From Hyphomicrobiales bacterium (GTDB lineage: Bacteria; Bacteroidota; Bacteroidia; Bacteroidales; JBGRPZ01): a DNA stretch of 64,000 bases. The stretch is from the NCBI GenBank assembly GCA_041725915.1, contig JBGRPZ010000007.1:1160-65159 (forward strand). The letters run 5' to 3'. The position numbers were made by a program, and so were the translations under genes. Of this stretch, positions 11,931-63,933 are shown one piece after another (position 1 is the stretch's first letter; the number at the start of each line of letters is the position of its first letter). Under the pieces are notes generated by a model that did not search any database, was not told where the DNA came from, and was given only the letters and a program-made list of their open reading frames with translations.

Positions 11931-12344
11931 CTTTAATCTTAATTGATTGAGTAAAAATTCTGTACGAATATATGATTATAACAAAGAATTATGGGAATTG
12001 ATATAAAAAGAGCTTGTTACTTATGGAAGATATATCAGGTATTTTTGTTGAATCACTAGAATCACTATGAGTTTGAGTAGTTGAAGAGAGTTGTTTTTAA
12101 CATAAAAAAACACTTACTTTTTTTTTTAATTTTCATAATCATTAACCTAAAGATCAAAAGCCTAAAATCTGCTTTCCCCTGTATTTTTGTACATTTTCAC
12201 TAATCTACATAAACGCCTTGTAATCAGTACTTTTTAAATATATAATAACAAGATATATCTTGTCACTACAGCATGTTTTGTTGATAATCACGATCAAAAG
12301 TTAAGCGAATAAATCTCGTAGGTCTACTGATTAAAGGCAAAAAA

Positions 12345-12499
12345 CTAGGAGTTTTGTTTTAAAGTCTAGGAGTTTTGTTTTAAAGTCTAGGAGTTTTGTT
12401 TTAAAGTCTAGGAGTTTTGTTTTAAAGTCTAGGAGTTTTATTTCAAAGTCTAGGAGTTTTATTTCAAAGTCTAGGAGTTTTATTTCAAAGTCTAGGAGT
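12345..12499. repeat. 21-bp tandem repeat: 7 full copies plus a partial
   Basis: 4x CTAGGAGTTTTGTTTTAAAGT, then 3x CTAGGAGTTTTATTTCAAAGT, then CTAGGAGT; no spacers. Confidence 0.97.
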
Positions 12500-12652
12500 A
12501 AAATTTCGTAGGCTTTAAGGTAAATCTTATAGTTCAGTTAGTTATGTATTGCAAATCAATTAGTTAATTCTTTTAGATCAATTCACCTTTTCATTTTCTC
12601 AGGAAACAGATCTTTTTAGAGTCATATATAATCGAAATCCGAAGCTTTTGCT

Positions 12653-12682
12653 ATTTAACATAACATTGGGCTTATATGTGCG
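12653..12682 (-). other. XerC/XerD (dif/cer)-like recombination site, 8-bp spacer
   Basis: Minus strand CGCACATATAA-GCCCAATG-TTATGTTAAAT; right arm identical to the canonical XerD arm; near-identical copy at 61989. Confidence 0.6.
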
Positions 12683-12864
12683 ATAATCTACAATTTTAAA
12701 ATTGAAAGCCGAATTATCGCACTATACAGCAGTTAAAAATAAGCGATAAAGCTTATAAAGAAGGGAATGTAAGCATCTGGAATAAAAACATTCCCCTTCT
12801 AAATCTTCAATAATAAGTAGATTATTAAGATGAATTAATTGTAAAAGTATATTATATCTGAATA

Positions 12865-12894
12865 AACTGATTTAAAGAAACCTTTAAATCAGTT
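12865..12894 (-). terminator. hairpin/terminator after the PepSY-TM gene
   Basis: aactgatttaaag-aaac-ctttaaatcagtt. Confidence 0.6.
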
Positions 12895-12898
12895 CATA

Positions 12899-14452
12899 TT
12901 AATCAACTTTTCTTTTACGTCTAAATGCTCGCTTCAACCATAATATCAACCCACTCAAAAGAATTAAGAAGGTAAACAGTCCAAATAATGGAATAATCAG
13001 TATATAGAACTTTCCAACTATAGGCTGAAAGATACGTGCTGTATGGGTCTCAAGACATAAATTCCAGAATGACATTCGTGAATTCTCTCTTAGCTCTTTA
13101 GGCATTGTAAGGCTCTTGGCTGCACGAGGAGTCATCCCTATCACACCATCATTATAATCAATATAGAAATCTCCAGATATACTATCTTGTATTACACCAG
13201 AAACAGCATTCTTTCCAATTGGAGGGCCTCCTCTATTGATCACTGGTGGAGCACCTGAAAAATAATCTAACAACACATCATCATAAGGATTCCATTCAAA
13301 CAAACCAGAGAAAGAACCTACAAGGTAATGCCCTGATGGACTATCTTCCATCACATTAATACCCATAACACTAATTGGGGGTTGTAGCTTTGATAAGTCA
13401 GGAACATCATTGAATGCAGTATCTACAGTATATATACCTTCAATAGTTCCTACTAGAACCTTATTTCTTTTCTTATCGAAATGTACTGCTCTGATAATAT
13501 CAAAATATGGGTTGGGTTGGTCAAGATGTGTACCTGCTATCTTTGAAACTCTTGAACTGGCTATTGGTATAAGTAAAGGAGGACGTAAGAACATTCCCGT
13601 TATAGTTATAATCATAAGAAAGATTACAACCCAAATACCTACCTTCAGATGATACTTATGATGCCATTTATATCTCTTTGACAACTTCTTTTTCTTCTCT
13701 TTATCTTCTCTTTTCTTTCTTATCCTTTTGGGAATTATCCACATCACAAGACCGCTAATGGCAAAAAAGATCATAAGTAATGCCATTATATCTACAAATA
13801 TCTTTCCTGCGAAACCAAAGATCTCACCACTATGTATCATCCAGAAAGTACGGAAAAGGCTCACCTTGCCATCCAAGTTCTTTGCTGGCAGCAACTCCTC
13901 TTTCACAACAGAATAATCATTACCCTGCTTTGTCATAGTAAAGATATCAGAACGAGTAGCCAACAACAACTTATCATTCAATAAATCCAGATCTACAATT
14001 CTCTCTTCTTTGGTTGGAAGACCGTAATACATCCAATCACTATATAAATCAGGCTTGTAATAAAGACCAAACTCAGTTGCTGCAAACAGCTGATCACCCC
14101 ATCTTACAATATCATATATCTTACGGCCATCAGCTCCAGCACCAAAACCATTATTATAGTCATTAAACTGTGAGAAACTATTATCTGTAAGAAAGCAACC
14201 TTCATTACCATATACCAACATTTGTGTGGAATTCAGGCGCAGACCACCATTCAAAGCACCGAAATTCCAATTGCCCATTGCATATTCCTTTGGCAAAGCC
14301 GAGCGGGGAACATCCCATGATCGTATCCAATCCCTATGATTCATGAATATACCCGACAGAGACCAAATAACTACAAACACTGTCAATACTATAGAAAACC
14401 ATTTATGTATCCAAAGCCACCTTTTCTTCTTTTTCTTCTTTTTCTCACTCAT
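12899..14452 (-). CDS. PepSY-associated TM helix domain membrane protein
   Basis: IHKWFS...SGIFMNH, IHSGEIFG, HLKVG...TGMFL, THTARIF: repeated His-bearing TM motifs. Confidence 0.85.
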   Translation of the reverse strand: MSEKKKKKKKRWLWIHKWFSIVLTVFVVIWSLSGIFMNHRDWIRSWDVPRSALPKEYAMGNWNFGALNGGLRLNSTQMLVYGNEGCFLTDNSFSQFNDYNNGFGAGADGRKIYDIVRWGDQLFAATEFGLYYKPDLYSDWMYYGLPTKEERIVDLDLLNDKLLLATRSDIFTMTKQGNDYSVVKEELLPAKNLDGKVSLFRTFWMIHSGEIFGFAGKIFVDIMALLMIFFAISGLVMWIIPKRIRKKREDKEKKKKLSKRYKWHHKYHLKVGIWVVIFLMIITITGMFLRPPLLIPIASSRVSKIAGTHLDQPNPYFDIIRAVHFDKKRNKVLVGTIEGIYTVDTAFNDVPDLSKLQPPISVMGINVMEDSPSGHYLVGSFSGLFEWNPYDDVLLDYFSGAPPVINRGGPPIGKNAVSGVIQDSISGDFYIDYNDGVIGMTPRAAKSLTMPKELRENSRMSFWNLCLETHTARIFQPIVGKFYILIIPLFGLFTFLILLSGLILWLKRAFRRKRKVD

Positions 14453-14564: not shown

Positions 14565-14660
14565 TTTGTTATAATTCATTTATTTATATACCTTTGTAGC
14601 AACATGCTTACCCCGCTTCCTTCTATGAATAGCGCGCTTAGGGTAAGCCTTTTATTTTTT
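14565..14660 (+). ncRNA. candidate ~55-nt hairpin small RNA with its own promoter
   Basis: TTTG(14565)-N20-TACCTTTG(14589) promoter, then stem GCTTACCC...GGGTAAGC and a plus-strand T-tract. Confidence 0.4.
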
Positions 14661-17600
14661 ATGATTCTACTTCTTGTTTTTCTTCTGTTGTCGTCTTTTT
14701 CTCCTCTATAGAATTTATATAATCCTCTAATAAAATAGCATATTTATTTCTTATCTTCTTTGCCGTTCTTTCCTCTGTTATATCCTTAGGAGCATTCTCG
14801 ATAATATATTCAGCTAATTCATCTGTTATTTCTGTCTCAATAAAAGCACGGATTCTTTCTTTTCTTTTTTCTATTTCTATCTTATCTTTTATATTTAACT
14901 CAAGATCTTTGAATTTATCAAATGCATCTAAAAATATTATTCCTGCTGATCTAAAAAAGACAATTAACCTAAGATTAAAACTTAGATCATTCATTAGTCC
15001 TAGAGGATTAGAACTCTCTAAAATAGAAATATGATTATAATATTTCCCAAATGCAGGAATATAAAAATATCTATGATTATATTCTTCTCTAAAATCAGAC
15101 AAATTCTTTTGAAAAAATATTCTTGGAATATCAAAATCAGAAGTAGGCTTTAATTTAAACTTAACAGCTCTATAACAATTACCTATAGGTATATTATCTT
15201 CTATAGTCATATCTTTCATTAAGAACTCATAAAAGTCTTCAATGTAAAATCCATTTGTTAAAAAATCTTTTAATAAAAGAAAATCTCGTGTGATAATCTT
15301 ACCCTGATTTTCCTCTTCATTTAAAAAAGAATTAAAGACTTCATTGATTGGATACTTATATAAATCAATTTCACCGCTATATTCAATATCTTTGATTTTC
15401 AAATATTTCTTTAGCAGAGAATTATTGACTAAATCTACACATATTACTTCTTCTGAAGAAAACAACTCCTTTAATGATATATCAAATCCAGAATCCTTTT
15501 TATTTAAAAGGATTGGTAGCTTAATATTATTAATCTCATCTTTCGTTAGAGATCCCTTTAAACTCTGATTATTACAATATCTTAATATTAAAGAAATTAA
15601 TCTGAAATACGCTAAATATGATTTAGGAGAAACATTCTCTTTATCATTAGAATATTTTGAGCAAAAAGCATCTGAAATTTTATCTATAACTCCTGAAATA
15701 GATTCGAATACTCTTGAAAAGATCTTTTTAATTAATACTTCATTAACTAATTCTTGCTCTTTTCGTTTTATGGAATTATCTCTTGAGAGTTTCACTATTT
15801 TACCTGAGTCACAATTGTATAAATCCCAAGTAACTGATTGGTGTAATAGATTTTCATATCCTCTTCCACCAGATTGCTTAAAAACACTAACCCCTTTAAG
15901 CCTCAATCTTAAATCACCATATTCATTGTGTTTTTCCATTATAAAAATTGATACTTTCGATCCAAAGAACTCAGTTTCTTCTATTTTTATTCTAAAAGTA
16001 TATAAGTCTCTCCCTCCTGTTCTTTGCTCCTTCTTTATATAAATCTCATATTTATTTCTAAAATCAGACCCAAAGAAACCTGAGTAAATTAATTCATCAT
16101 TTATATCATATTCTTGATGATATAAAAAAGTTTCTGGATCCACTCCTTTCTTTGGAAATTTAACATGATCAACTAATTCACTATATCTTCTTTTCAGTCC
16201 AAAAAATGAATATAAAACATCATTATCTTCAGGTAACACCTCTGTTAATGTTTTCTTAGAGATTAGCTCATCACCTGTCTTCTCTTTATACTCATCAGGT
16301 TTTAGAAGAATTTCGATTCTAGTTCCTCTTTCCATATTAGGAACATTTTCAGTAATACTGGAATACTCCCCTTTACTTGCCGATTTAAATACAATTTCTT
16401 TAGCTTTTTCTTTCTCTGTTTTGGTTTGTATTTTAAACTCATTAGCTACAAGAAATATCGATTGTAAACCAACGCCAAAATCACCTGTAGGTTGAAGAAA
16501 GTATGGGAGTTCACTCTTTATATCCTGAAAATCTTTATCCTTTCTCCTACTTTCACCAACTTTAAAGATCATTCTCTTTAATGTTTCTGTGCTTATACCA
16601 TGCCCTCTATCTTCTAATTGAATAAGAATTCCTTCTCCTTTTTCACCCTTGTTCTTATAATCAATATGAAATTTAATAGGATAATTATCATATACTTCTT
16701 GGGGAATATCTTCAGGAAAAGTAATAAGTTGATACAATTCCTTTCCTTCATCTAATTCTTTTTGTAGGTACTCAATTCTTTCCTGTTCTCCCTCCTTCTT
16801 TTCCATCAAAAGATATTTTTGAATAATAGAATTATATCTATTATCCTTTATATCATACCACAATTGCAATTTAGTTGCATCCAGAGCATTTTGCACAATT
16901 TCTCGTAAAAACACTTTATCTGGTTCATCATAAATTGCACCTCCTTCAAGCATTTCAAATATTTTCTTTTGTGGAATATCAAAGCGTAAGTTTTGTAACT
17001 CAGAATCGGCATCAACACCTTTAAATTTTACAACAATTTTATCTTTTCTAATATTCGGACAAGTTCCTTTCAGATCAAATGGAGCTATATCGTTCTTCCA
17101 ATAATCCTTTAACTCTGTTCTTTCTTTTAGAATTAATTCTCGCCAATTCATAGCCTCACGAAATATTAGATCACTTGGACAATTCCAGGTAATCTCAATA
17201 CTATCCGGACAAATTAAAATATGTTCTACAGATGCATGTTTTCCTTCATGAGCCACTGAAGTATCAGGAATAGTATTAAGAGTTGCTATTTGAAATGGGT
17301 TAAACCTTTTATCGTCTGCATCCAATAAATCACCTAATCGAAGCATCGCTGCAATAAAACGAGGATGGCATAAATCATTATCATAACCACTCTGCTTATA
17401 TTGAAGATTAGACAACAACTTATCATAGTCATAACCATGAGCAGCTACAATCTCAGCAATCATCTTGGAGAAACGATCAGGTAAGAAATTTAAATTAAAC
17501 TGATTCATCAATTTTTGAAAGATATGGTCTGAAGAAGCTGTAATATATTCCTTACTCCTTTGTGCATGCCCCCTTCTAAAATAATCAGCTGTTATTAGAA

Positions 17601-18093
17601 TCATTGCATTCTTTATATCCAATGACCATAGTTCCTCAATCTTAAAGCTATCATCAACTTTTTCTCCCAATAGCTTTTTATTATAATTCAATATTAATTT
17701 GGCTGCATCTTTTAGTCCATTATCAGAACTTTCTTTAATTATATCTTCACAAAATTGAATCAATTGCCCACCCTTCCATTCCTCTGCAATAAATTGATGC
17801 AATACAACCATTCCAATATCATGAAGGTAAGCACTCATTAAAATAAGAAAAGAGTCTGTAGGAGAAAGCTTCTCAATTCCCTCTTTTCCTAATACTCCCT
17901 CTATTGATTTCACTATAGCTCTGGAATGGCTGGCTCCATGTTTGCTATAATGAGGAAAGTTATTTGTAATTGTATCTAATGCATCAGGGAGGTGATCCTT
18001 GTTTAATTTCCATATAGAATATAAAACTTTAAAATTAGGATAGGTAGTGCAAATCTTCTCAAGATGCAACTCAATAGTATAATTTTCAAACAT
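14659..18093 (-). CDS. HD-domain (HD-CE-like) + Hsp90-like GHKL ATPase fusion protein, putative conflict/defence effector
   Basis: HYSKHGASHS, AYLHDIGM, RLGDLLD; GHKL motifs LREIVQNALDA, EDRGHG, GDFGVGLQS, GTRI. Confidence 0.8.
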   Translation of the reverse strand: MFENYTIELHLEKICTTYPNFKVLYSIWKLNKDHLPDALDTITNNFPHYSKHGASHSRAIVKSIEGVLGKEGIEKLSPTDSFLILMSAYLHDIGMVVLHQFIAEEWKGGQLIQFCEDIIKESSDNGLKDAAKLILNYNKKLLGEKVDDSFKIEELWSLDIKNAMILITADYFRRGHAQRSKEYITASSDHIFQKLMNQFNLNFLPDRFSKMIAEIVAAHGYDYDKLLSNLQYKQSGYDNDLCHPRFIAAMLRLGDLLDADDKRFNPFQIATLNTIPDTSVAHEGKHASVEHILICPDSIEITWNCPSDLIFREAMNWRELILKERTELKDYWKNDIAPFDLKGTCPNIRKDKIVVKFKGVDADSELQNLRFDIPQKKIFEMLEGGAIYDEPDKVFLREIVQNALDATKLQLWYDIKDNRYNSIIQKYLLMEKKEGEQERIEYLQKELDEGKELYQLITFPEDIPQEVYDNYPIKFHIDYKNKGEKGEGILIQLEDRGHGISTETLKRMIFKVGESRRKDKDFQDIKSELPYFLQPTGDFGVGLQSIFLVANEFKIQTKTEKEKAKEIVFKSASKGEYSSITENVPNMERGTRIEILLKPDEYKEKTGDELISKKTLTEVLPEDNDVLYSFFGLKRRYSELVDHVKFPKKGVDPETFLYHQEYDINDELIYSGFFGSDFRNKYEIYIKKEQRTGGRDLYTFRIKIEETEFFGSKVSIFIMEKHNEYGDLRLRLKGVSVFKQSGGRGYENLLHQSVTWDLYNCDSGKIVKLSRDNSIKRKEQELVNEVLIKKIFSRVFESISGVIDKISDAFCSKYSNDKENVSPKSYLAYFRLISLILRYCNNQSLKGSLTKDEINNIKLPILLNKKDSGFDISLKELFSSEEVICVDLVNNSLLKKYLKIKDIEYSGEIDLYKYPINEVFNSFLNEEENQGKIITRDFLLLKDFLTNGFYIEDFYEFLMKDMTIEDNIPIGNCYRAVKFKLKPTSDFDIPRIFFQKNLSDFREEYNHRYFYIPAFGKYYNHISILESSNPLGLMNDLSFNLRLIVFFRSAGIIFLDAFDKFKDLELNIKDKIEIEKRKERIRAFIETEITDELAEYIIENAPKDITEERTAKKIRNKYAILLEDYINSIEEKKTTTEEKQEVES

Positions 18094-47510: not shown

Positions 47511-47520
47511 AAACAAAAAA

Positions 47521-47620
47521 AGGGTAAGCTACCTGCGTCGCACTGCTACAACCTCATACCCTTGCTGCCTTCCGGCCCTGGGGGATTCTGAGGGAGCTAG
47601 TCGCACAGGACTTACCCGGC
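47521..47620 (-). ncRNA. ffs: signal recognition particle (4.5S) RNA
   Basis: Minus strand has domain IV CCAGGGCCGGAAGGCAGCAAGG inside a long hairpin closed by GGGTAAG/CTTACCC. Confidence 0.93.
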
Positions 47621-47900
47621 CACAAAGATAGAAAAAAGTTGGTAAATACAAGTTTTTTTCATCCTTTCTGAGAAAAAAAATCATATCACAATATATACCA
47701 ATACTATACAACTGCATTTTTTTTACAAAAAAGAAGAAATCCAGCCCCACTCTACTATAAAACGCTAATATCCCCCCGAAAATCCAGTTGAATTTCTATA
47801 AATCTTCCTCTTTTTCCACAAAAGTCTCTCATAAAATCTCAAAAAGACATTCTTTTCTCTTCTTTTCGGCAAATTTTGTCCTTGCCTGCGTTTTTATAAA

Positions 47901-48045
47901 TCCTCCCCCAGAAAAATAAAGTTTCATCCCCTGATGAACATCAATCTTCCCACTGACACTCATCCATTCTCCCCTTGACACTCACCCATCTTCCTACTGA
48001 CAACCATTCATCTTCCCCCCGACATTTATGCATTCTTCCCCCGAA
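47901..48045. repeat. degenerate ~22-bp periodic array (7 units)
   Basis: TCTTCCCNNNGA-type cores at ~47901, 47924, 47945, 47967, 47989, 48011, 48034. Confidence 0.7.
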
Positions 48046-50128: not shown

Positions 50129-51607
50129 ATGATTACTTTTCTTGTTGCAATTGCAGTCTTAATTATAGGTTATCTTATATATGGCGTGATTGTAGAAAAA
50201 ATCTTTGGTGCAAATCCAAAGAGGCCAACTCCTGCAATAACAAAAGCAGACGGAGTTGATTTTGTTCCTATGTCCGGTAAAAAGATATTCCTTGTTCAGT
50301 TCTTGAATATTGCAGGACTAGGACCAATATTTGGTGCTATATCAGGAGCTCTATGGGGTCCGGTAGCGTTTCTATGGATAGTATTTGGCTGTATATTCGG
50401 CGGTGCTGTCCATGATTATATTTCCGGAATGATTTCATTGAGAAGTGATGGAGCTAGTTTACCCGAAATTGTAGGGAAATATCAAGGCAAAGGCATGAAG
50501 AACTTTATGCGTTTCTTTGCAGTGATACTTCTTGTCATTGTGGGAGCAGTGTTTATCAAAGGCCCTGCTGTTATCCTTCACGATCTTACAGGACTCAATA
50601 CAGTAATTCTTGCAGTAATCATCTTTCTGTATTATTTAATTGCAACACTAGCCCCTGTAGATAAAATTATAGGTAAGGTTTATCCAATATTTGGATTGGT
50701 GTTGCTCATAATGGCATTAGGATTATTCTTTGCACTGATATTTGGTAAGATGCATATTCCAGAGATATCATTAAGCTCATTTACCAATTGGCATAGCTCA
50801 CCAGAGAAATTTCCTACTTTCCCTATGTTGTTTGTCACCATTGCCTGTGGAGCGATAAGCGGTTTCCATGCTACACAGTCTCCTATGATGGCTCGATGTA
50901 TGACCAATGAGCGACAAGGAAGAAAGATCTTCTATGGTGCAATGATAACAGAAGGTGTACTAGCATTGATATGGGCAGCAGTTTCCATGAGTTTCTTTGG
51001 AGGCGTTCATGAGCTAGGTACAGCAATGGCCAAAGAAGGTAATAACGCTGCATGGGTCGTCAACGAGATATGTAATACTACCTTAGGTAAAGTTGGAGGT
51101 GCATTAGCGATAATAGGAGTAGTTGCTGCCCCTATAACATCAGGCGATACCGCCTTCAGGAGTGCAAGACTTTCCATTGCAGATGCACTTGGTTTCAGTC
51201 AAAAGCCGATATCTAAACGACTAGCTATCTCTATACCTCTATTTGCAGCAGGTTTAATACTTACACAAGTAGACTTTGGCATCATATGGAGATATTTCGG
51301 CTGGGCTAATCAAACACTTGCAGCAATTACTTTGTGGACGCTGGTTCTATATATGGCGAAAAAATCAAAGCCTTATATAATTGTGTTAATTCCTGCAATC
51401 TTCATGACTGTAGTTATTACATCTTACATATTAGTTGCTCCAGAAGGTTTTGGATTAAAGCACAGCTTAGGTTATCTCATTAGCATTATAGTATCATTAA
51501 TTATCACACTGATATATCTATCCATAATAAAACGAAGATCAGTAGTGGTATCACTCAACAAAGCTAAAATAGAACCCAAGCCAGAAAAGGTTAAGGCCGA
51601 TAATTAG
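50129..51607 (+). CDS. cstA: carbon starvation protein A family transporter, tandem paralog
   Basis: Same motifs; colinear with the upstream copy including the C-terminal PEKVK.DN. Confidence 0.93.
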   Translation: MITFLVAIAVLIIGYLIYGVIVEKIFGANPKRPTPAITKADGVDFVPMSGKKIFLVQFLNIAGLGPIFGAISGALWGPVAFLWIVFGCIFGGAVHDYISGMISLRSDGASLPEIVGKYQGKGMKNFMRFFAVILLVIVGAVFIKGPAVILHDLTGLNTVILAVIIFLYYLIATLAPVDKIIGKVYPIFGLVLLIMALGLFFALIFGKMHIPEISLSSFTNWHSSPEKFPTFPMLFVTIACGAISGFHATQSPMMARCMTNERQGRKIFYGAMITEGVLALIWAAVSMSFFGGVHELGTAMAKEGNNAAWVVNEICNTTLGKVGGALAIIGVVAAPITSGDTAFRSARLSIADALGFSQKPISKRLAISIPLFAAGLILTQVDFGIIWRYFGWANQTLAAITLWTLVLYMAKKSKPYIIVLIPAIFMTVVITSYILVAPEGFGLKHSLGYLISIIVSLIITLIYLSIIKRRSVVVSLNKAKIEPKPEKVKADN

Positions 51608-51611
51608 AGTA

Positions 51612-51660
51612 TAAAAAAAGAAGAAATTCTGAAGTGGCTAGATTCAGGATTTCTTCTTTT
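51612..51660. terminator. bidirectional terminator
   Basis: aaaagaagaaattctgaa...ttcaggatttcttctttt. Confidence 0.8.
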
Positions 51661-51790
51661 AAAAGAATATATTATTATGTGTTGACTCTAATCTGCAAAA
51701 CGGCGAATAATGCTTTTTTAAAGTCTTTCAAAAATTAATAAGAACAGTAATAGCAAACTATAAAAGGCTTACATTTATAATCACTAACTG
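51612..51790 (-). ncRNA. candidate ~170-nt small RNA
   Basis: Minus-strand TATATTTG promoter (51794-51801), upstream palindrome, no credible ORF, ends in the terminator with a U-tract. Confidence 0.4.
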
Positions 51791-51821
51791 CGGCAAATAT
51801 AAAAGCAAAACACAAAGCAGT

Positions 51822-51843
51822 AAATACCTAAAACAAGGTATTT
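51822..51843. promoter_or_regulatory. palindromic operator, same motif as 14512
   Basis: AAATACCT-AAAACA-AGGTATTT. Confidence 0.6.
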
Positions 51844-51942
51844 TTTATATACAGTCTAAAATAACAAAGTAGGAAAGATGTATAAAAGAATAAGTTTATA
51901 CTTATCTTTATCAAAAGATTAATCAATCTATCCCAAAGTACA

Positions 51943-52443
51943 ATGAAAACATATTATCGCCTCATTATACTTTTATACACTTTTGCCTTAGCCTTGTATT
52001 TCTCACTTATTGTTTTCAATAACCTTGCTGATTATAATAGCAATTTCCTTTCAGTAAAAGGGATTTTAGACATGAGTGAAGTGATAAAAGACTCCATTGC
52101 CTGGCGAAGTATAGAGAGCCCATATATTCATCACACCTTTTATATACTTATCATCATCTTCGAGTTTATAATCGCTGTCTTATACTGGATTGGGTTTATA
52201 GATATGATAAGAACATTTAGACGAAGTTGGATCGAAAGACCTTCAGCTTTCAAGTGGGTTTCTGCTTCATCATTCATAGTGCTTCTTATATTTCTACTTG
52301 GGTTTGTTGTGATAGGTGGAGAGTTTTTTCTTTCCTACAGATCAGCAACAATAAACTCTGTCATACCGGGAATGAGGATATCAACAATCATTATATTCTA
52401 CATTATTCTTCAGATTCCATATTTAAGCAGAATGGAATTATAG
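51943..52443 (+). CDS. DUF2165 family membrane protein
   Basis: FNNLADYNSNF..V..IL.M, WRSI, GFVVIGGEFF. Confidence 0.78.
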   Translation: MKTYYRLIILLYTFALALYFSLIVFNNLADYNSNFLSVKGILDMSEVIKDSIAWRSIESPYIHHTFYILIIIFEFIIAVLYWIGFIDMIRTFRRSWIERPSAFKWVSASSFIVLLIFLLGFVVIGGEFFLSYRSATINSVIPGMRISTIIIFYIILQIPYLSRMEL

Positions 52444-55837: not shown

Positions 55838-56944
55838 TTATATTTTGCTAACTATTCCTGTTTCTACTTTCATTAATTGATGTTCAAGATGGGTAGATTC
55901 TAAAACCTTCTTTATTCTATCAATACTTGTATCGGTTATAAAAACCTGACCGAACTCATTATCACCAATAAGGTGGATTATCTTTTCTACTCGTTCCTCA
56001 TCCAGCTTATCAAAGATATCATCAAGGAGAAGAATAGGATAAAATCCTTTTTCACGTTTAATAAACTCTAATTGCGCAAGCTTTATAGCAATAACAAAAG
56101 ATTTTTGCTGGCCTTGAGAGCCAAACTTCTTGATAGGATAACCACTTATCTTAAACGTCAAATCATCTTTGTGAATTCCTCGGGAAGTGTATTTTAGTGC
56201 TTTATCCCTCTCAACATTCAGTTTCAATACTTCATGAAGATCAGTTTCATGGAGATCTGATTTATATTCAATGCTTACTTTCTCATGGCTACCAGCAATA
56301 TGAGAATAATAATGTTGAAACAAATCCAGAAACTCTGTAACAAACTCCTTACGATATTTATGTATCTTTCCTCCAATATCAGATAAAGATTGATCCCAGA
56401 TTTGCAATGCTTCAAGATCAAAGTAATGAGATTCAGCAAAAGACTTCAACAGAGAGTTTCTTTGCATCAATGCTTTATTATAGTCAAGTAGCAGATTCAG
56501 ATACGTTTTATTGAACTGGCTTATTACTCCATCGATAAACTTACGTCTAACATCAGACCCTTCGTTTATCAGATCTCTATCATAAGGACTTATAAGTACC
56601 AGAGGAATTAAGCCTATATGTTCAGAAAGCTTTTTATATTCCTTTTGGTTGTATTTAAATATCTTCTTTTGTCCTTTCTTGAAGATACAACTTACCTGCT
56701 GCCCTGTTTCTGTGTCATTATCAAAGTCTGCATGTATAGCAAAGAAATCTTTTCCATGTTGCACATTCTGCGAATCCTGAGGATTAAAATAGCTTTTACA
56801 GAATGAAAGGTAATAGATAGCATCAAGGATATTAGTCTTTCCTGTTGCATTCTTCCCAATAAAACAATTGATTCCTGAGCATAGATCCACTTCAGTGAAC
56901 TCATAGCTTTTAAAATCCGTAAGAGAAAGTTTTTTCAGATACAT
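55838..56944 (-). CDS. recF: DNA replication/repair protein RecF
   Basis: GKNATGKTN, RRKFID, GIHKDD, GSQGQQK, LLLDD. Confidence 0.96.
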   Translation of the reverse strand: MYLKKLSLTDFKSYEFTEVDLCSGINCFIGKNATGKTNILDAIYYLSFCKSYFNPQDSQNVQHGKDFFAIHADFDNDTETGQQVSCIFKKGQKKIFKYNQKEYKKLSEHIGLIPLVLISPYDRDLINEGSDVRRKFIDGVISQFNKTYLNLLLDYNKALMQRNSLLKSFAESHYFDLEALQIWDQSLSDIGGKIHKYRKEFVTEFLDLFQHYYSHIAGSHEKVSIEYKSDLHETDLHEVLKLNVERDKALKYTSRGIHKDDLTFKISGYPIKKFGSQGQQKSFVIAIKLAQLEFIKREKGFYPILLLDDIFDKLDEERVEKIIHLIGDNEFGQVFITDTSIDRIKKVLESTHLEHQLMKVETGIVSKI

Positions 56945-56949
56945 ATAAA

Positions 56950-57813
56950 CTATTTGGAAAGTTCTTCTATGCGTTTAATTACATTTTCCATCAACCATGA
57001 GGGGGTAGAAGTAGCTCCAGAAACACCTACTCTATTTGCTTCTGTAAACCACTGTGGATTCAGTTCATTGACAGAACTGATATGATAAGATTTAGGGTTA
57101 CTCTCTTTACACTCTGCAAACAAGGCTTTACCATTACTACTATTCTTTCCAGCAACAAATATCACACAATCACACTCCAATGCAAACTTCTTCAACTGAG
57201 GTACTCTATTCGAAACGCTTCTACAGATTGTATTTTTTGCAGTGACATTATTCTCACCAACTTTGTTTTTGATATTATCAATTAGCTTTTGATAATTATG
57301 TATGTCTTTTGTAGTTTGAGAGAAAATATTTACATGTTTTGACGCGTCGATATCATGTATTTTTTGAGGATCTTCAATAATTATAGCTTCATTATCAGTT
57401 TGTCCTTTAAGTCCAACTACTTCAGCATGATCTGTTTTTCCATAAATAACAATGGTATTATCAGAATCTGTCTTTTCACCTTCCCATACCTTCTTGATAT
57501 CTTTCTGTAATTTGAGTACTATAGGACAAGTAGCGTCAATAATCTCAATATTTCTTTCTTTTGCTAACTTATAAGTAGATGGAGGTTCACCATGAGCACG
57601 AATCAACACAGTACAATCTGAAATATGGTTTAAATCTTCATGATTTATTACTACTAAACCTTTTTTCTCTAGTCTTTGTACTTCTTCATGATTATGTACT
57701 ATTTCACCCAAACAATACAATTTCTTACCTGTAGAAAGATATTTCTCAACAGCTTTTATTGCATTATTAACTCCAAAACAAAAACCTGAAGCTCTATCTA
57801 AAACAATTTCCAT
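56950..57813 (-). CDS. ispH: 4-hydroxy-3-methylbut-2-enyl diphosphate reductase
   Basis: GFCFGV, IVHN, RAHG, DATCP, QTT, TIC, SSN, ATSTP; ATG 57813 preferred. Confidence 0.96.
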   Translation of the reverse strand: MEIVLDRASGFCFGVNNAIKAVEKYLSTGKKLYCLGEIVHNHEEVQRLEKKGLVVINHEDLNHISDCTVLIRAHGEPPSTYKLAKERNIEIIDATCPIVLKLQKDIKKVWEGEKTDSDNTIVIYGKTDHAEVVGLKGQTDNEAIIIEDPQKIHDIDASKHVNIFSQTTKDIHNYQKLIDNIKNKVGENNVTAKNTICRSVSNRVPQLKKFALECDCVIFVAGKNSSNGKALFAECKESNPKSYHISSVNELNPQWFTEANRVGVSGATSTPSWLMENVIKRIEELSK

Positions 57814-60164: not shown

Positions 60165-61217
60165 TTATTGTTTTTCAATATTATGCTTAATGATAGTTCT
60201 CATTATTTCACGATTTGATTGATATTGATCAAACAATAGTATATTCACCTTTTTATGTTTTCTCTCTGCTGCTTTGACCAGCTCAGGAAACCATGTCTTA
60301 ATTGTACTATTTACTGAGCTAGAATCAGAAACTATCTGATAAATACTCTTAGGGCGATGTCTCAATGAATTGATAAGCACTTCCTCGGTTGGAGTCTGAA
60401 CAGCAAAAGAAATATATAGTTTATCCATAGCTCTATTGCCAATATCTCTCTTCATATCTGTTATTACTTCCTTAGCATTAAACTTATCTATATTCTCTTG
60501 CATCAACACTTTATCACTCTCATAATATAATTCAGTTTGACGTTCATTTTGTGCAGGATAAGAAGAGATAAAAATAACACTTCTCTTTCTTCCCCAAACA
60601 TCTCCCAAGGTCAATGTAATATCTTGTTCATCTACTCTTGCTATATGAGGAGAAAGGCGATCAATAAAGATTTGTAACAACTCATCATAAAGAGCTGGTT
60701 CAACATTCAATCTTCGTAAATTAATAATGATAATTTCTTTGGGGTGTCTCCTGATAAATGTAGAAATCTGATCTAAAACAGGTTGTATAGGATTCGAAAC
60801 AAAATTATGGAAAGACCAAATTGTATTCTTATAAGATTGTAAATGAAAATCAAAATATCTCACTCCATTTTCTAACTGCTCAATGATTGGCTGTGATTGA
60901 TTTTGAGAAAACATCAACAAGCCTTCTTTTCCTACTTTTTTTCTTATCGAATCAGACCAATTATCATAAGAATACTGAGATAAAGGCTTATCAAGCCTTA
61001 TCAAATCTGTAAGAGAATGATGAGTTCCTACAAGAGCAATATCAGTTAACTTTACCTCAGGTTTTTCTTTATATATCTCATACATCCAATCTGATGTCTT
61101 TATTTTTTTTCCATTTATATTTTCTACCTGAGTATTTTCACATGAAGAAATAACAAATAAACTAATTATCAGGAGATAAAATTTATATGACACTTTCATA
61201 AAGTAGAGGTTTTTCAT
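60165..61217 (-). CDS. PI-specific phospholipase C X-domain lipoprotein, divergent active site
   Basis: Lipobox ISSC; GTHHS, QLENGVRYFDFH, HPKEIII. Confidence 0.78.
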   Translation of the reverse strand: MKNLYFMKVSYKFYLLIISLFVISSCENTQVENINGKKIKTSDWMYEIYKEKPEVKLTDIALVGTHHSLTDLIRLDKPLSQYSYDNWSDSIRKKVGKEGLLMFSQNQSQPIIEQLENGVRYFDFHLQSYKNTIWSFHNFVSNPIQPVLDQISTFIRRHPKEIIIINLRRLNVEPALYDELLQIFIDRLSPHIARVDEQDITLTLGDVWGRKRSVIFISSYPAQNERQTELYYESDKVLMQENIDKFNAKEVITDMKRDIGNRAMDKLYISFAVQTPTEEVLINSLRHRPKSIYQIVSDSSSVNSTIKTWFPELVKAAERKHKKVNILLFDQYQSNREIMRTIIKHNIEKQ

Positions 61218-61702
61218 TTGATCAGTACATCTTTTATAGGTGAAGTAGCTTCAAACCACTTATAAAACAGAAAGGCTTATACTAAGTATGTTAAACCACA
61301 ATTCAAGCTTTTGAAATATTAGATACTTGAAGATAAGTAATTATTATTTTGAATAATATTTATTCTTGAAATACTGGTTTCTAAATATAAACAAAATTAC
61401 AATACATTTGGTTGAAAAAACTTATAGGTAATTAAGTATACCACCCCAAATCATTTCAAAATAAAAATACAATTTTATCTATAAAACCTTCTTACATTAA
61501 TACAAAAATCCTGACCAAAAGAATGTGTTCTATTCCCTTTTTTTGAAAATCCTTGCTATTACAGCATATACCACTAATAATCAATATAATATATATTTCA
61601 GACTTTTATGTTTCATCTAATCCTACACAAATTTAAGTCAAGTCTCAAAATCTAAATTAATATCTTCCAAAAGAAAGTTATAATCATATGATATATATAT
61701 CA

Positions 61703-61870
61703 CTACCTAGAAAATATAATTTTAGCTACCTAGAAATTTATATTCTTGCTACCTAGAAAATATAATTCTTGCTACCTAAAATAAAATTAGACTTACCTAA
61801 AAATTTATATTCTTGCTACCTAAAATAAAATTAGACTTATCTAAAAATTTATATTCTTGCTACCTAAAAT
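61703..61870. repeat. 21/23-bp tandem repeat array (8 unit starts)
   Basis: (C/T)TACCTA(G/A)AA cores at 61703, 61726, 61749, 61772, 61793, 61816, 61837, 61860; the 44-bp segment 61772-61815 is nearly duplicated. Confidence 0.92.
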
Positions 61871-61988
61871 TTCTCAATCCTCTATTCTCTTAAAAATCAT
61901 AAGTTTGATAACAATCAGCGATCAATCTTTTACAAAGAGATATTTTCCAGATTATTTTTAAACACCAAAACTTATTATTCATAATTCT

Positions 61989-62018
61989 ATTTAACATAAG
62001 ATTGGGCTTATATGTGAG
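61989..62018 (-). other. XerC/XerD (dif/cer)-like recombination site, 8-bp spacer
   Basis: Minus strand CTCACATATAA-GCCCAATC-TTATGTTAAAT; 28/30 identical to the 12653 site. Confidence 0.6.
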
Positions 62019-62167
62019 ATAAAAACAAACTTTGAAATAGAAAAGCTTATTTATTCGATTCTCAGAGCGTTTAACATTACCCCAAAAGCTTATAAATCAT
62101 CAATAAAGAAGATTCGAAAACTTTACAAGAAATTGAAAGAATTTCATTTATTTTTGATTCTTTTAAT

Positions 62168-63250
62168 TCAATTAGTTTTAAGAGTAGATTTATTTGTTTT
62201 TAAAATAGTTGCTTTTAAATTCAATTGATTATAATTCAAAAGGCCTTCTATCATTATAGGATTCAATTGATACTGATCAAAAATCAATATATTGACACTT
62301 CTATCATTCATATTTGCAGCATTGGCCAATTGCGGAAACCAGTTTGAGAAAGTATTATTCAAGCTATTAGGAGCTTTAACCATTTCTATAATTCCATCAG
62401 GGCCACCTTTAAGTGAGTTTTCAAGAGTCAAGCTATTTGGGCTTTGGATGGTCTGAGAGACATATAGCTTATTCATAGGTCGTAAAGCAATACTATCTTT
62501 CAGGATAGGGACAATTTCTTCAGGTTTATACTTATCAGGCCAATAGTTTAATATAGATTTACTTCTATCATATACATATGTATCATTCTCTTTATTAGCA
62601 GTATGAAAAGAAGAAAGAATAATTACAGATACACCCTTATCCCAGAAGTCTTTTAATGAAGAATTAACGCCTATTTCATCAGACTTAGCAATGTGCCTAC
62701 CAAACTTATCTACAAATGATTTAATCAAATGATTATATGTATCATCATCCATAATAACCTTTTGCAGATCAATAATAAGTATTTCTTTAGGGTGATTTTC
62801 CACAAATCTTGACATCTCTTCTATTACTGGCATAAGAGGGTTCGAGACCAAATGATGAAAAGACCATACTTCGTTATTATATTCCTGAATACGAAAGTCA
62901 AAATATCTAATTCCACCACTTAATTGTTCGGCCATAGTTCTGGATTGATTTTGAGAAAATAAGAATATTCCTTTCTTACCTACAGCTGTTTTCACTTCTT
63001 CAGTCCATTCATTTACAGGCTGTAAAGAATAAGGATTGCTTTCCGAAATCTGATAAGTCAATGCATCATGAGTTCCAGGAATAGCAATTGCAGTTAATTT
63101 AGTATTGGGATGGTTTTTATAAATCTGATCCATCCAATTAGATTTACTTACATCTGCTGTAGATTCTGAATTATGAGAATCTGCATTTTTTCCGCATGAT
63201 CCAAATAGAAAACAGATAGCAAACATGCTTAGCAAGAAATAGCGGTTCAT
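62168..63250 (-). CDS. PI-specific phospholipase C X-domain lipoprotein
   Basis: Lipobox FGSC; IPGTHD, QLSGGIRYFDFR, HPKEILI. Confidence 0.85.
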   Translation of the reverse strand: MNRYFLLSMFAICFLFGSCGKNADSHNSESTADVSKSNWMDQIYKNHPNTKLTAIAIPGTHDALTYQISESNPYSLQPVNEWTEEVKTAVGKKGIFLFSQNQSRTMAEQLSGGIRYFDFRIQEYNNEVWSFHHLVSNPLMPVIEEMSRFVENHPKEILIIDLQKVIMDDDTYNHLIKSFVDKFGRHIAKSDEIGVNSSLKDFWDKGVSVIILSSFHTANKENDTYVYDRSKSILNYWPDKYKPEEIVPILKDSIALRPMNKLYVSQTIQSPNSLTLENSLKGGPDGIIEMVKAPNSLNNTFSNWFPQLANAANMNDRSVNILIFDQYQLNPIMIEGLLNYNQLNLKATILKTNKSTLKTN

Positions 63251-63468
63251 TAGTCTTAGGTTATGTATTTAGTTTCAGAGTTTTATTTCACTTTAAATAA
63301 ACGATATTTCATATATGACAAATACAAGAGCAGCAGTATTTAGAATCGAAATAACTTTTAACCAACAGAAAACAAGGTGATTAAAAGCTTACTTCACAAA
63401 AAAACCGACAAGCATTAAATACTTGTCGGTTAAATCATCATATATGATATTCAGTTTTTAAATCAGTT

Positions 63469-63933
63469 TTATAACAAATCTTCTTCGGGTTCAAAGATGC
63501 GATTAACTTCATTTTGTACCCATCTAATTTGTTTCTGTTTTTTATAATCCTTCCACTTATCATATACTCCTAACCTTTTAATCTCAGAATTAAAATTTGT
63601 AAAAGCATATGTACCTTTTATCAATTCTTCTAATCTATACTTATCATTAGACTCTGGTAGTTCGAAGACAAATTCTTCAATCAATTCAAACAGTCCTTCA
63701 TTCGTCATTGGTTGTATTCGCTCAAAGAGCTCATGGATATCTTCATAGTTTTTTCTTTCATTTCTCATATTTAAGTCTTCATCACAATTTAAAAGCTCTT
63801 CTGAGGGAACTTCAATGATAACTCTATTCAGTTTATGTATGTAATATTCATATCCACCAAAGTGAACATTCTCAGCAAGGGATTTCCATTCTTCTTGAGT
63901 AAAATTCATAGTATAATATGGTTTAGAATTCAA
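63469..63933 (-). CDS. UPF0158-like hypothetical protein
   Basis: FELIEEFV...L...IKG..AF.NF...KWKDYK pattern; start uncertain. Confidence 0.6.
   Translation of the reverse strand: MNSKPYYTMNFTQEEWKSLAENVHFGGYEYYIHKLNRVIIEVPSEELLNCDEDLNMRNERKNYEDIHELFERIQPMTNEGLFELIEEFVFELPESNDKYRLEELIKGTYAFTNFNSEIKRLGVYDKWKDYKKQKQIRWVQNEVNRIFEPEEDLL

Follow-up and report, generated by a model that had tools for sequence, protein, structure and literature searches.

Non-coding mobile repeats that enclose a minisatellite have been described in Porphyromonas gingivalis, where BrickBuilt, a MITE (miniature inverted-repeat transposable element) up to 991 nt long, has its leader and tail separated by a 23-nt minisatellite and is present in 19 copies, always intergenic, with short inverted-repeat ends that match IS5-family ISPg insertion sequences (IS), and where another element, PgRS (MITE464/PgRS), carries a 41-nt repeat (both according to the account of the elements in PMC4596501). 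Here, we analyzed a 64,000-nt stretch of contig JBGRPZ010000007.1 from a Bacteroidales genome (GCA_041725915.1; hereafter "the window", to whose first letter unprefixed coordinates refer), in which a tandem array followed by a look-alike of a dif/Xer recombination site occurs twice, ~49 kb apart (copies 1 and 2). In our view, the two loci likely arose by separate insertion of a single MITE-like repeat that is mosaic, non-coding and lineage-specific and contains a minisatellite with a period of two helical turns and a conserved mimic of a XerD arm. By architecture, the minisatellite-bearing BrickBuilt/PgRS MITEs of P. gingivalis appear to be the closest known kind.

As far as the P. gingivalis elements are described, the likeness is extensive: they too belong to the Bacteroidales, are non-coding and intergenic, have tens of copies, terminal inverted repeats and a leader-minisatellite-tail order, reach ~1 kb, include many partial copies and variable repeat numbers, and are confined to one species group. 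This likeness is one of architecture as described; no relation in sequence was seen. The family reported here differs from BrickBuilt, as the latter is portrayed, in having 3-4 times more copies, several unrelated array units (with periods of 21-22 bp and multiples thereof) and ends that match no IS in the assembly. It also contains a dif look-alike, whereas the description of BrickBuilt makes no mention of Xer, a dif site or a recombinase (PMC4596501). A literature search found no published MITE carrying a dif-like Xer site, and the feature that is new relative to known MITEs is a core that contains the exact XerD arm of the order's dif candidates.

Modular mosaic intergenic repeats are also familiar as BOX in Streptococcus pneumoniae (e.g., boxA-boxB(n)-boxC), BIME in enterobacteria and NIME in Neisseria. 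Like these, the present family has a variable internal module, combines different modules at different loci and is intergenic and of high copy number; their modules are shorter, and to our knowledge none of them carries a dif look-alike. What the core has in common with Xer sites (dif, cer/psi and the pdif sites of Acinetobacter) is the ATAA…TTAT dyad together with an 11-bp XerD arm that matches the one in the lineage's dif candidates exactly. Its 8-bp centre is like that of cer and, as in plasmid Xer sites, its XerD arm is conserved and its XerC arm variable. The core differs in being neither single-copy at the terminus nor plasmid-borne and in having its array on the XerD side, and the alternating inverted pairs of pdif modules are absent. 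Within the same order, dif-like sites are also carried by mobile DNA in IMEX, the microvirus-like BMV proviruses of Bacteroidales that are flanked by such sites and proposed to exploit Xer recombination (PMC3091885). As they are described there, IMEX lie at dif and hold phage genes between two direct dif-like sites; the present repeat has one core per unit and no genes, and occupies dozens of loci away from dif.

A dispersed mosaic repeat family

The array and dif-like core of the window belong to a repeat family that is spread through the whole genome (G000; 3.88 Mb, 33% G+C, 123 contigs, designated by C-numbers). The 17-mer ATTTAACATAACATTGG, the left part of the site, gave 55 matches in the 3.88-Mb assembly at up to one mismatch, and a 28-mer of the core gave 49 matches with up to five substitutions; these genome-wide counts reject the view that the window contains a unique pair of sites. 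The core with its tail yielded 65-76 BLAST copies and an anchor in the left module 76 matches, and the outer left and outer right modules were found ~47 and ~38 times, respectively. Altogether, the family comprises 52,849 bp (1.36% of assembled bases) with 79-91% identity among copies, and the assembly is broken mainly by it, 158 of 246 contig ends lying inside the family. All 56 sites that we examined were intergenic, none being inside an open reading frame (ORF) of at least 150 aa, and a full-length copy (C3:13371-14461) contained no ORF of 60 aa or more. The genes that neighbour different copies are unrelated to one another, and the orientation of the element relative to them is random, with 27 opposite and 24 same-orientation neighbours on the tail side and 19 opposite and 14 same-orientation neighbours on the array side.

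The repeat is built around a central unit of ~750-790 bp with imperfect terminal inverted repeats, whose own termini, …TATCAAACTACTTTAAAA and CTAAAAGTAGATTATA…, are complementary at ~14 of 18 positions by manual alignment. Inside it, a left module is followed by the tandem array, a spacer of ~100-260 bp and a core unit of ~100 nt. In many copies the central unit is flanked by two smaller modules, resulting in a composite of ~1.1 kb. The outer ends of this composite are sharp and carry inverted repeats, GAAGTGATTTAAAAA at 47 left ends and TTTTTAAATCACTTC at 38 right ends, and the same GAAGTGATTTAAAAA/TTTTTAAATCACTTC ends bound many smaller elements of 72-430 bp. Since modules with ends of their own are nested in or adjoin one another, the whole repeat is a mosaic of small non-coding elements. 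The family has several properties of a MITE, being non-coding, up to ~1 kb long, multi-copy, dispersed and intergenic, with terminal inverted repeats at sharp boundaries, and it shares with BrickBuilt-type elements an internal minisatellite that varies in unit number between copies. A solitary terminal-repeat motif, CAGTTTTTAAATCAGTT, was also seen at 63451-63468 of the window, right after the stop of ORF 63469-63933 (minus strand), and is absent from the corresponding spacer of the congeneric genome G001.

Because 22 of the 55 cores are at contig ends, 33 could be assessed for an array. Twenty of these have one that ends 102-260 bp upstream of the core, with a period of 21, 22, 43, 44 or 66 bp and, among copies, 2.2 to 9.6 units. 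At least five unrelated unit types were distinguished (CTAGGAGTTTTGTTTTAAAGT; a 43-mer that combines a 22-mer with a 21-mer; AATCTCGTAGGTCTACTTACAG; units of the CTACCTAAAA type; and units of an AAGCTCGAGAGAATC type), and TAGG is present in most units. The proposal of the preliminary description that phase rather than sequence is under selection is thereby supported in part, the period always being 21, 22, 43, 44 or 66 bp while the units differ.

Beyond this genome the family is nearly absent. We compared G000 with 40 others (one per family of the order, plus G001, whose coding DNA is ~66-68% identical to that of G000; an order panel of 41 genomes in all), and among the 40 relatives only G001 matched, on one contig. 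The pieces on this contig (G001:C53:1-399 and 17895-17978), the only ones in the congener, are 86-89% identical to G000 sequence, and the contig is either mis-binned or the product of a recent transfer. No credible 17-mer core was found in G001, where 4 matches at two mismatches compare with 2 for the control. A relaxed core pattern gave no match in 185,579 species representatives and none in IMG/VR, and the single core-pattern match among metagenome contigs proved unrelated on inspection. The picture is that of a lineage-specific, recent burst of a non-autonomous mobile repeat.

Likeness of the core to Xer sites

Read on the other strand, the core is ATAA-GCCCAATG-TTATGTTAAAT-AG, or in general form ATAA-N8-TTATGTTAAAT-AG. 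Classical Xer sites, such as those of E. coli and B. subtilis, consist of a XerC arm, a 6-bp centre and a XerD arm. In the order panel, the pattern ATAA-N6-TTATGTTAAAT was present in 23 of 41 genomes, and exactly once in 21 of them; the reversed-pattern control occurred in 5 of 41. These dif candidates read …TTGTCCT-ATAA-TTAATA-TTATGTTAAAT-AG…, with the same AG after the arm as in the repeat core, and provide a candidate dif consensus for the order. The only match in G000, ATAA-TTCATA-TTATGTTAAAT, is at C5:28964-28984, and since the GC skew changes there from +0.108 on the left to -0.080 on the right, this is likely the chromosomal dif, at the terminus of G000. The genome also encodes XerD on C69 (TIGR02225, 339 bits against a cut-off of 329.6) and a XerC-like protein on C19.

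In the repeat core, therefore, the XerD arm and its outer flank are exactly those of the dif candidates of the lineage, and they are accompanied by an ATAA…TTAT dyad and an 8-bp centre; the resemblance to an Xer site that had been noted earlier was upheld by this match of arm and flank. In an alignment of 17 representatives less than 85% identical to one another, covering 137 nt, the XerD-like arm was the best-conserved block, with 10 of 11 columns invariant and one at 90% or more, while the outer arm and the remainder ranged from 30% to 90%. Something maintains this arm, and most likely it would be a binding site for host-encoded XerD/XerC. With its 8-bp centre, at least 55 copies and a dif candidate elsewhere in the genome, the core is not itself the chromosomal dif in spite of the matching arm; in sequence alone it has the make-up of a cer/psi core, i.e., XerC and XerD arms around a centre of 6-8 bp. 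It does not have the arrangement of pdif modules or IMEX either, since each unit has one core and the window pair brackets 49 kb of housekeeping genes.

On C5, outside the window, four cores (36158, 43757, 50700 and 63056) lie to one side of the dif candidate at distances of 7-34 kb; an array is missing from three of them, and the fourth has only a small one. C5 represents 2% of the assembly and has 3 of the 12 array-less cores, and the genes between them are housekeeping genes. The cluster may reflect Xer activity close to the terminus, or it may be due to chance. The interval C5:43.7-63.1 kb, between two inverted solitary cores, was considered as a mobile island and rejected on account of its housekeeping genes. 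The core at C5:50700 keeps only its first 17 nt and lies 279 bp upstream of a gene for a 424-aa Bacteroidetes-type integrase (50979-52253; Arm-DNA-bind_5, SAM_5 and Phage_integrase domains), followed by a GNAT gene, and this site may be an attachment (att) junction of an integrating element that targeted a core. At C7:1-235 and at ~25499 of C61, a core directly abuts the outer left module in reverse-complemented form; these rearrangements have their junctions not in the 8-bp centre but either 14 nt upstream of the XerD-like arm or at its outer edge. Lastly, a chimeric copy on C45 changes subfamily within the hairpin loop described below rather than in the 8-bp centre (read by eye), which points to homologous exchange rather than a Xer crossover.

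The two window copies and the PI-PLC-like paralogs

Copy 1 belongs to subfamily A, and its central unit (784 bp) extends from 12096 to 12879 on the plus strand by the limits of BLAST similarity, between a CinA gene and a PepSY_TM gene. A BLAST search against its own genome returned 242 high-scoring segment pairs, and copy 1, which is 88% identical to C19:32296-33047, is a piece of a longer repeat. Its minisatellite, a 21-bp unit (CTAGGAGTTTTGTTTTAAAGT) repeated 7.4 times, was located by Tandem Repeats Finder (TRF) at 12345-12499 (+), and the dif-like core ATTTAACATAA-CATTGGGC-TTATATGTGCG is at 12653-12682 (+). An imperfect hairpin typical of subfamily A (GTGCGATAAT … ATTATCGCAC) spans 12670-12730 (+), with a DNA fold of -13.8 kcal/mol (z -3.24) that none of 200 shuffles equalled. 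At the right end of copy 1, terminal repeats of small MITEs stand back to back (…AACTGATTTAAAG-aaac-CTTTAAATCAGTT…; 12841-12918). This abutting pair, with 4 bp between the repeats, is the only one in the genome, a fact that led us to reject the idea of a target palindrome of which each terminal repeat would be one half. A module of ~190 bp separates the same ends in 38 other copies; the pair may have arisen by an internal deletion of that module or be the footprint of its excision. A gene adjoining copy 1's neighbour (14659-18093, minus strand) encodes a protein of 1144 aa in which an HD-CE domain is combined with a GHKL-type ATPase domain, possibly of a defence type.

Copy 2 is a member of the divergent subfamily B; it shows 68-75% identity to copies on C16, C59, C41, C37 and C9, and its parts are arranged in the same order. 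It sits in a 950-bp spacer between two minus-strand ORFs (60165-61217 and 62168-63250), and no ORF of 50 aa or more was found in the spacer of either window copy. The whole repeat spans 61447-62194 (+) by its similarity to other copies; these boundaries are inferred rather than sharp, the termini of copy 2 being degenerate. Its left end resembles the family's left terminus (…AAATCATTTCAAAATAAAAATAC) when compared with the consensus, and BLAST matches to C16, C59, C41 and C9 span 61495-62194. The left module (61495-61600, +) is homologous to the AATCATTAACCTAAAGATC… module of subfamily A, with 68-79% identity to C16, C41 and C59. The minisatellite (61703-61870, +) comprises eight units, each 21 or 23 bp long and each containing (G)CTACCTA(A/G)AA, and related arrays, of the CTACCTAAAA type, occur at C16, C59 and C9. 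The TACCTA starts (61704, 61727, 61750, 61773, 61794, 61817, 61838 and 61861) are separated by 23, 23, 23, 21, 23, 21 and 23 bp, so the previously noted alternation of 21- and 23-bp units with a 44-bp phase applies to the last four intervals and not to the first three, which are plain 23-mers. TRF reported both a period of 44 repeated 2.8 times (94% matches) and a period of 23 repeated 7.4 times (66%).

The core of copy 2 begins with the XerD-arm look-alike ATTTAACATAA (61989-61999, +), the reverse complement of TTATGTTAAAT and hence identical to the arm of the order's dif candidates. It continues with the 8-bp central region GATTGGGC (62000-62007, +), for which copy 1 and most copies have CATTGGGC, and with the outer arm TTATATGTGAG (62008-62018, +), which starts with TTAT to complete the ATAA…TTAT dyad. 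This arm occupies the XerC position and is variable among diverged copies. Alignment of copies places the rest of the core unit, a tail with the conserved end AAAGCTTATAAA, at 62019-62097 (+). The right terminus, TTTTAAGAGTAGATTTAT (62176-62194, +), resembles the family's right terminus …CTAAAAGTAGATTATA, and similarity to C9 stops at 62194; it overlaps the last codons of ORF 62168-63250. This ORF is 360 aa long against 342 aa in its closest G001 relative, with an alignment that ends at residue 342, and its 18 extra C-terminal codons (62168-62224) run into the right end of the repeat. Insertion of the repeat may have replaced the original stop.

Comparison of the two copies confirmed the layout first reported. 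The array is upstream in both, with an array-to-site gap of 153 bp in copy 1 and 118 bp in copy 2, and the cores have the same orientation at a start-to-start distance of 49,336 bp. They are identical at 28 of 30 positions; of the two mismatches, one falls in the spacer of 8 bp (GCCCAATC and GCCCAATG, read on the opposite strand) and the second affects the outer arm. Also as reported, ffs, ispH and recF lie between the sites: the gene for a small, Bacteroidales-type signal recognition particle (SRP) RNA is at 47518-47624, recF at 55931-56938 and ispH at 56965-57807. The SRP RNA was the only Rfam match over the window at gathering thresholds, the copy 1 region gave chance-level matches only against Rfam at E ≤ 5, and a search for tRNA genes found none. 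Near the SRP RNA gene, in the AT-rich sequence that is characteristic of the window, we also observed a 22-bp tandem repeat (CATCCATCTTCCCACTGACACT; 47939-48040, 4.6 units, 71% matches). The resemblance of copies 1 and 2 is far above chance because both loci belong to one repeat family.

The ORFs on either side of copy 2 are PI-PLC-like: Pfam PI-PLC-X scored below its cut-off, and PDB chains of PI-PLC matched at E 4e-10. The two proteins share 38.9% identity, and the paralogs appear to be old. One of them (PLC2) is closest to a gene on another contig of G001 (45.5%), the other (PLC1) to the syntenic G001 gene (38.4%). The syntenic G001 locus has one PI-PLC-like gene and a 206-bp spacer without the element, and the PLC2-like gene elsewhere in G001 has spacers of 80 and 189 bp, likewise without it. 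Two G001 neighbours of this latter gene, of 593 and 436 aa, are adjacent on C19 of G000 with no PI-PLC-like gene between them; in one of the lineages, a paralog has therefore been relocated by a rearrangement. Another tandem pair of PI-PLC-like genes was observed at C113:4227-6313, with 26-27% identity to those of the window; C113 has no 17-mer core match.

These data allowed us to evaluate the earlier proposals that the two cores might excise the DNA between them and that the element is linked to the duplication or acquisition of PI-PLC-like genes. We searched Logan contigs (not reads) of three public runs from one coral metagenome study, material that leaves room for rare circles. A public contig of 1,371 nt covers 61889-63259 without a difference, thus showing the reference arrangement across copy 2. 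No joint of copy 1 to copy 2 was found in the contigs of the three runs, where a missing joint is not evidence of absence. The contigs showed a ~20-fold depth spike at the core and, in one run, one weak 218-bp skip within the array; loose contig ends at 62022 read as subfamily A sequence. A Xer pair that excises, or once integrated, the 49-kb segment, with an element that reflects the history of the paralogs, would agree with the direct orientation and near identity of the sites, the presence of XerD and XerC-like genes, and the fact that G001 has neither a second paralog nor the element at this locus. However, it would have to contend with at least 55 sites rather than two, with ffs, ispH and recF inside the segment and CinA and a PepSY_TM protein flanking copy 1, with the low identity of the paralogs, with a PLC2-like gene elsewhere in G001 and a tandem pair on C113 that are without element and 17-mer core, respectively, and with the lack of an excision joint in the contigs. 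We consider it extremely improbable. A functional excision pair is not supported, and neither is a link to gene duplication or acquisition. The check proposed earlier, whether relatives with a single PI-PLC gene lack the element, came out positive at the syntenic G001 locus, yet the PLC2-like gene elsewhere lacks it as well; given these loci and the dozens of others that carry the repeat, the element does not track the PI-PLC-like gene and is present regardless of paralog number. We found no link between the repeat and the paralogs and infer that the two window copies do not cooperate.

Mobility, possible roles and significance

If the two loci are independent insertions of a MITE-like repeat, as we favour, the family would have spread within the species by means of a transposase supplied in trans, one that is not in the assembly. 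The XerD-like arm would have been kept because it is needed in cis or useful to the host, and the phased array might act as a protein-binding scaffold beside a Xer-bound core. Several observations weigh against this reading. At least three modules with unequal copy numbers make up the 1.1-kb "full-length" form, and speaking of one element simplifies this mosaic. Flanks are A/T-rich (often AT or TA) and no consistent target-site duplication is readable in them, and G001, at ~66-68% identity, is too diverged for an empty-site comparison. No autonomous partner IS sharing the ends was found in G000 or G001: self-megablast of G000 revealed no multi-copy segment of at least 500 bp at 85% identity that encodes a transposase, a search for inverted-repeat pairs and searches with PF01609 and PF01797 returned no autonomous partner, and the DDE transposases that are present have different ends, e.g., TCTAAGTACACGACAA. 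The kilobase-scale inverted-repeat pairs that were recovered are probably chance, ~50 such matches being estimated for a 15-mer at up to two mismatches. Since the smallest contigs are ~10 kb (C123 reaches 10,031), a collapsed IS may be missing from the assembly. As to the core, its centre is 8 bp rather than the 6 bp of the dif candidates and shares no sequence with the TTCATA of G000, the array, wherever there is one, lies to the XerD-arm side, and 12 of the 33 assessable cores are without an array, with one more having only an unrelated 12-bp repeat. Furthermore, the core is a look-alike of a Xer site whose binding or cutting by Xer proteins is hypothetical, and the subfamily A hairpin is not kept in copy 2 (z +0.74).

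The same core and phased array could serve other ends. A transposable element equipped with a cer-like core and phased array of its own might hand cointegrate resolution, or another step of its life cycle, to host XerC/XerD. We regard this possibility as unlikely. In cer/psi, ~180 bp of accessory DNA is on the XerC-arm side, the side opposite to the array of the repeat. Alternatively, the host might have domesticated the repeat for an architectural or regulatory purpose, comparable to BIME/REP or mobile promoters, its array and arm binding host proteins and its copies serving chromosome organisation or the start or termination of transcription of neighbouring genes. The two-turn phasing, kept while the unit sequence changes, the strongly conserved 11-nt arm and the intergenic location of all copies are consistent with such a role, as are BrickBuilt segments that, by the published account, had bidirectional promoter activity in E. 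coli reporters (PMC4596501). On the other hand, orientation to genes is random and neighbours are unrelated, the absence of the family from the congener except on one contig argues that this is not an old host function, and no Bacteroidetes-type -33/-7 promoter with correct spacing was apparent at the core (read by eye against the consensus). We therefore consider domestication doubtful.

We find it still less probable that the core unit, ~100 nt long, represents a structured small RNA or else a single-stranded DNA hairpin site of the REP/RAYT, attC or CTX-type att kind, with its likeness to Xer sites being incidental. The subfamily A unit does fold significantly on both strands (z -3.24 and -2.63), and 12 of 33 core units are solitary, without arrays. 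However, copy 2 and its subfamily fold no better than shuffles (z +0.74 and +0.34), RNAalifold found no consensus structure for 34 copies, and few compensatory changes were evident by eye. There was also no Rfam match, and G000 has no RAYT or IS200 gene, PF01797 being only sub-threshold, in a 203-aa ORF of an unrelated gene cluster. Integron attC sites are characterised by the motif RYYYAAC … GTTRRRY; this candidate was dropped, as subfamily B has not retained the palindrome and tens of kb lie between copies.

A MITE-like repeat with a XerD-arm mimic has consequences on several levels. The species-level repeat burst breaks about two thirds of contig ends, which is relevant to the assembly and annotation of a little-sampled, coral-associated lineage of Bacteroidales. 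If the reading in which the element hands its resolution to Xer were true, ~70 dif-like sites over the chromosome would invite Xer-mediated deletions and inversions and offer landing pads to Xer-dependent phages, and the array-less cores 7-34 kb from dif would be a trace of such activity. Chromosome dimer resolution was called unstudied in the Bacteroidetes in 2011 (PMC3091885). The order-wide ATAA-N6-TTATGTTAAAT sites and a natural, high-copy mimic of them would allow simple binding and recombination tests, and if the mimic is active, it would represent both a new use of a host recombinase by a transposon and a new source of genome rearrangement.

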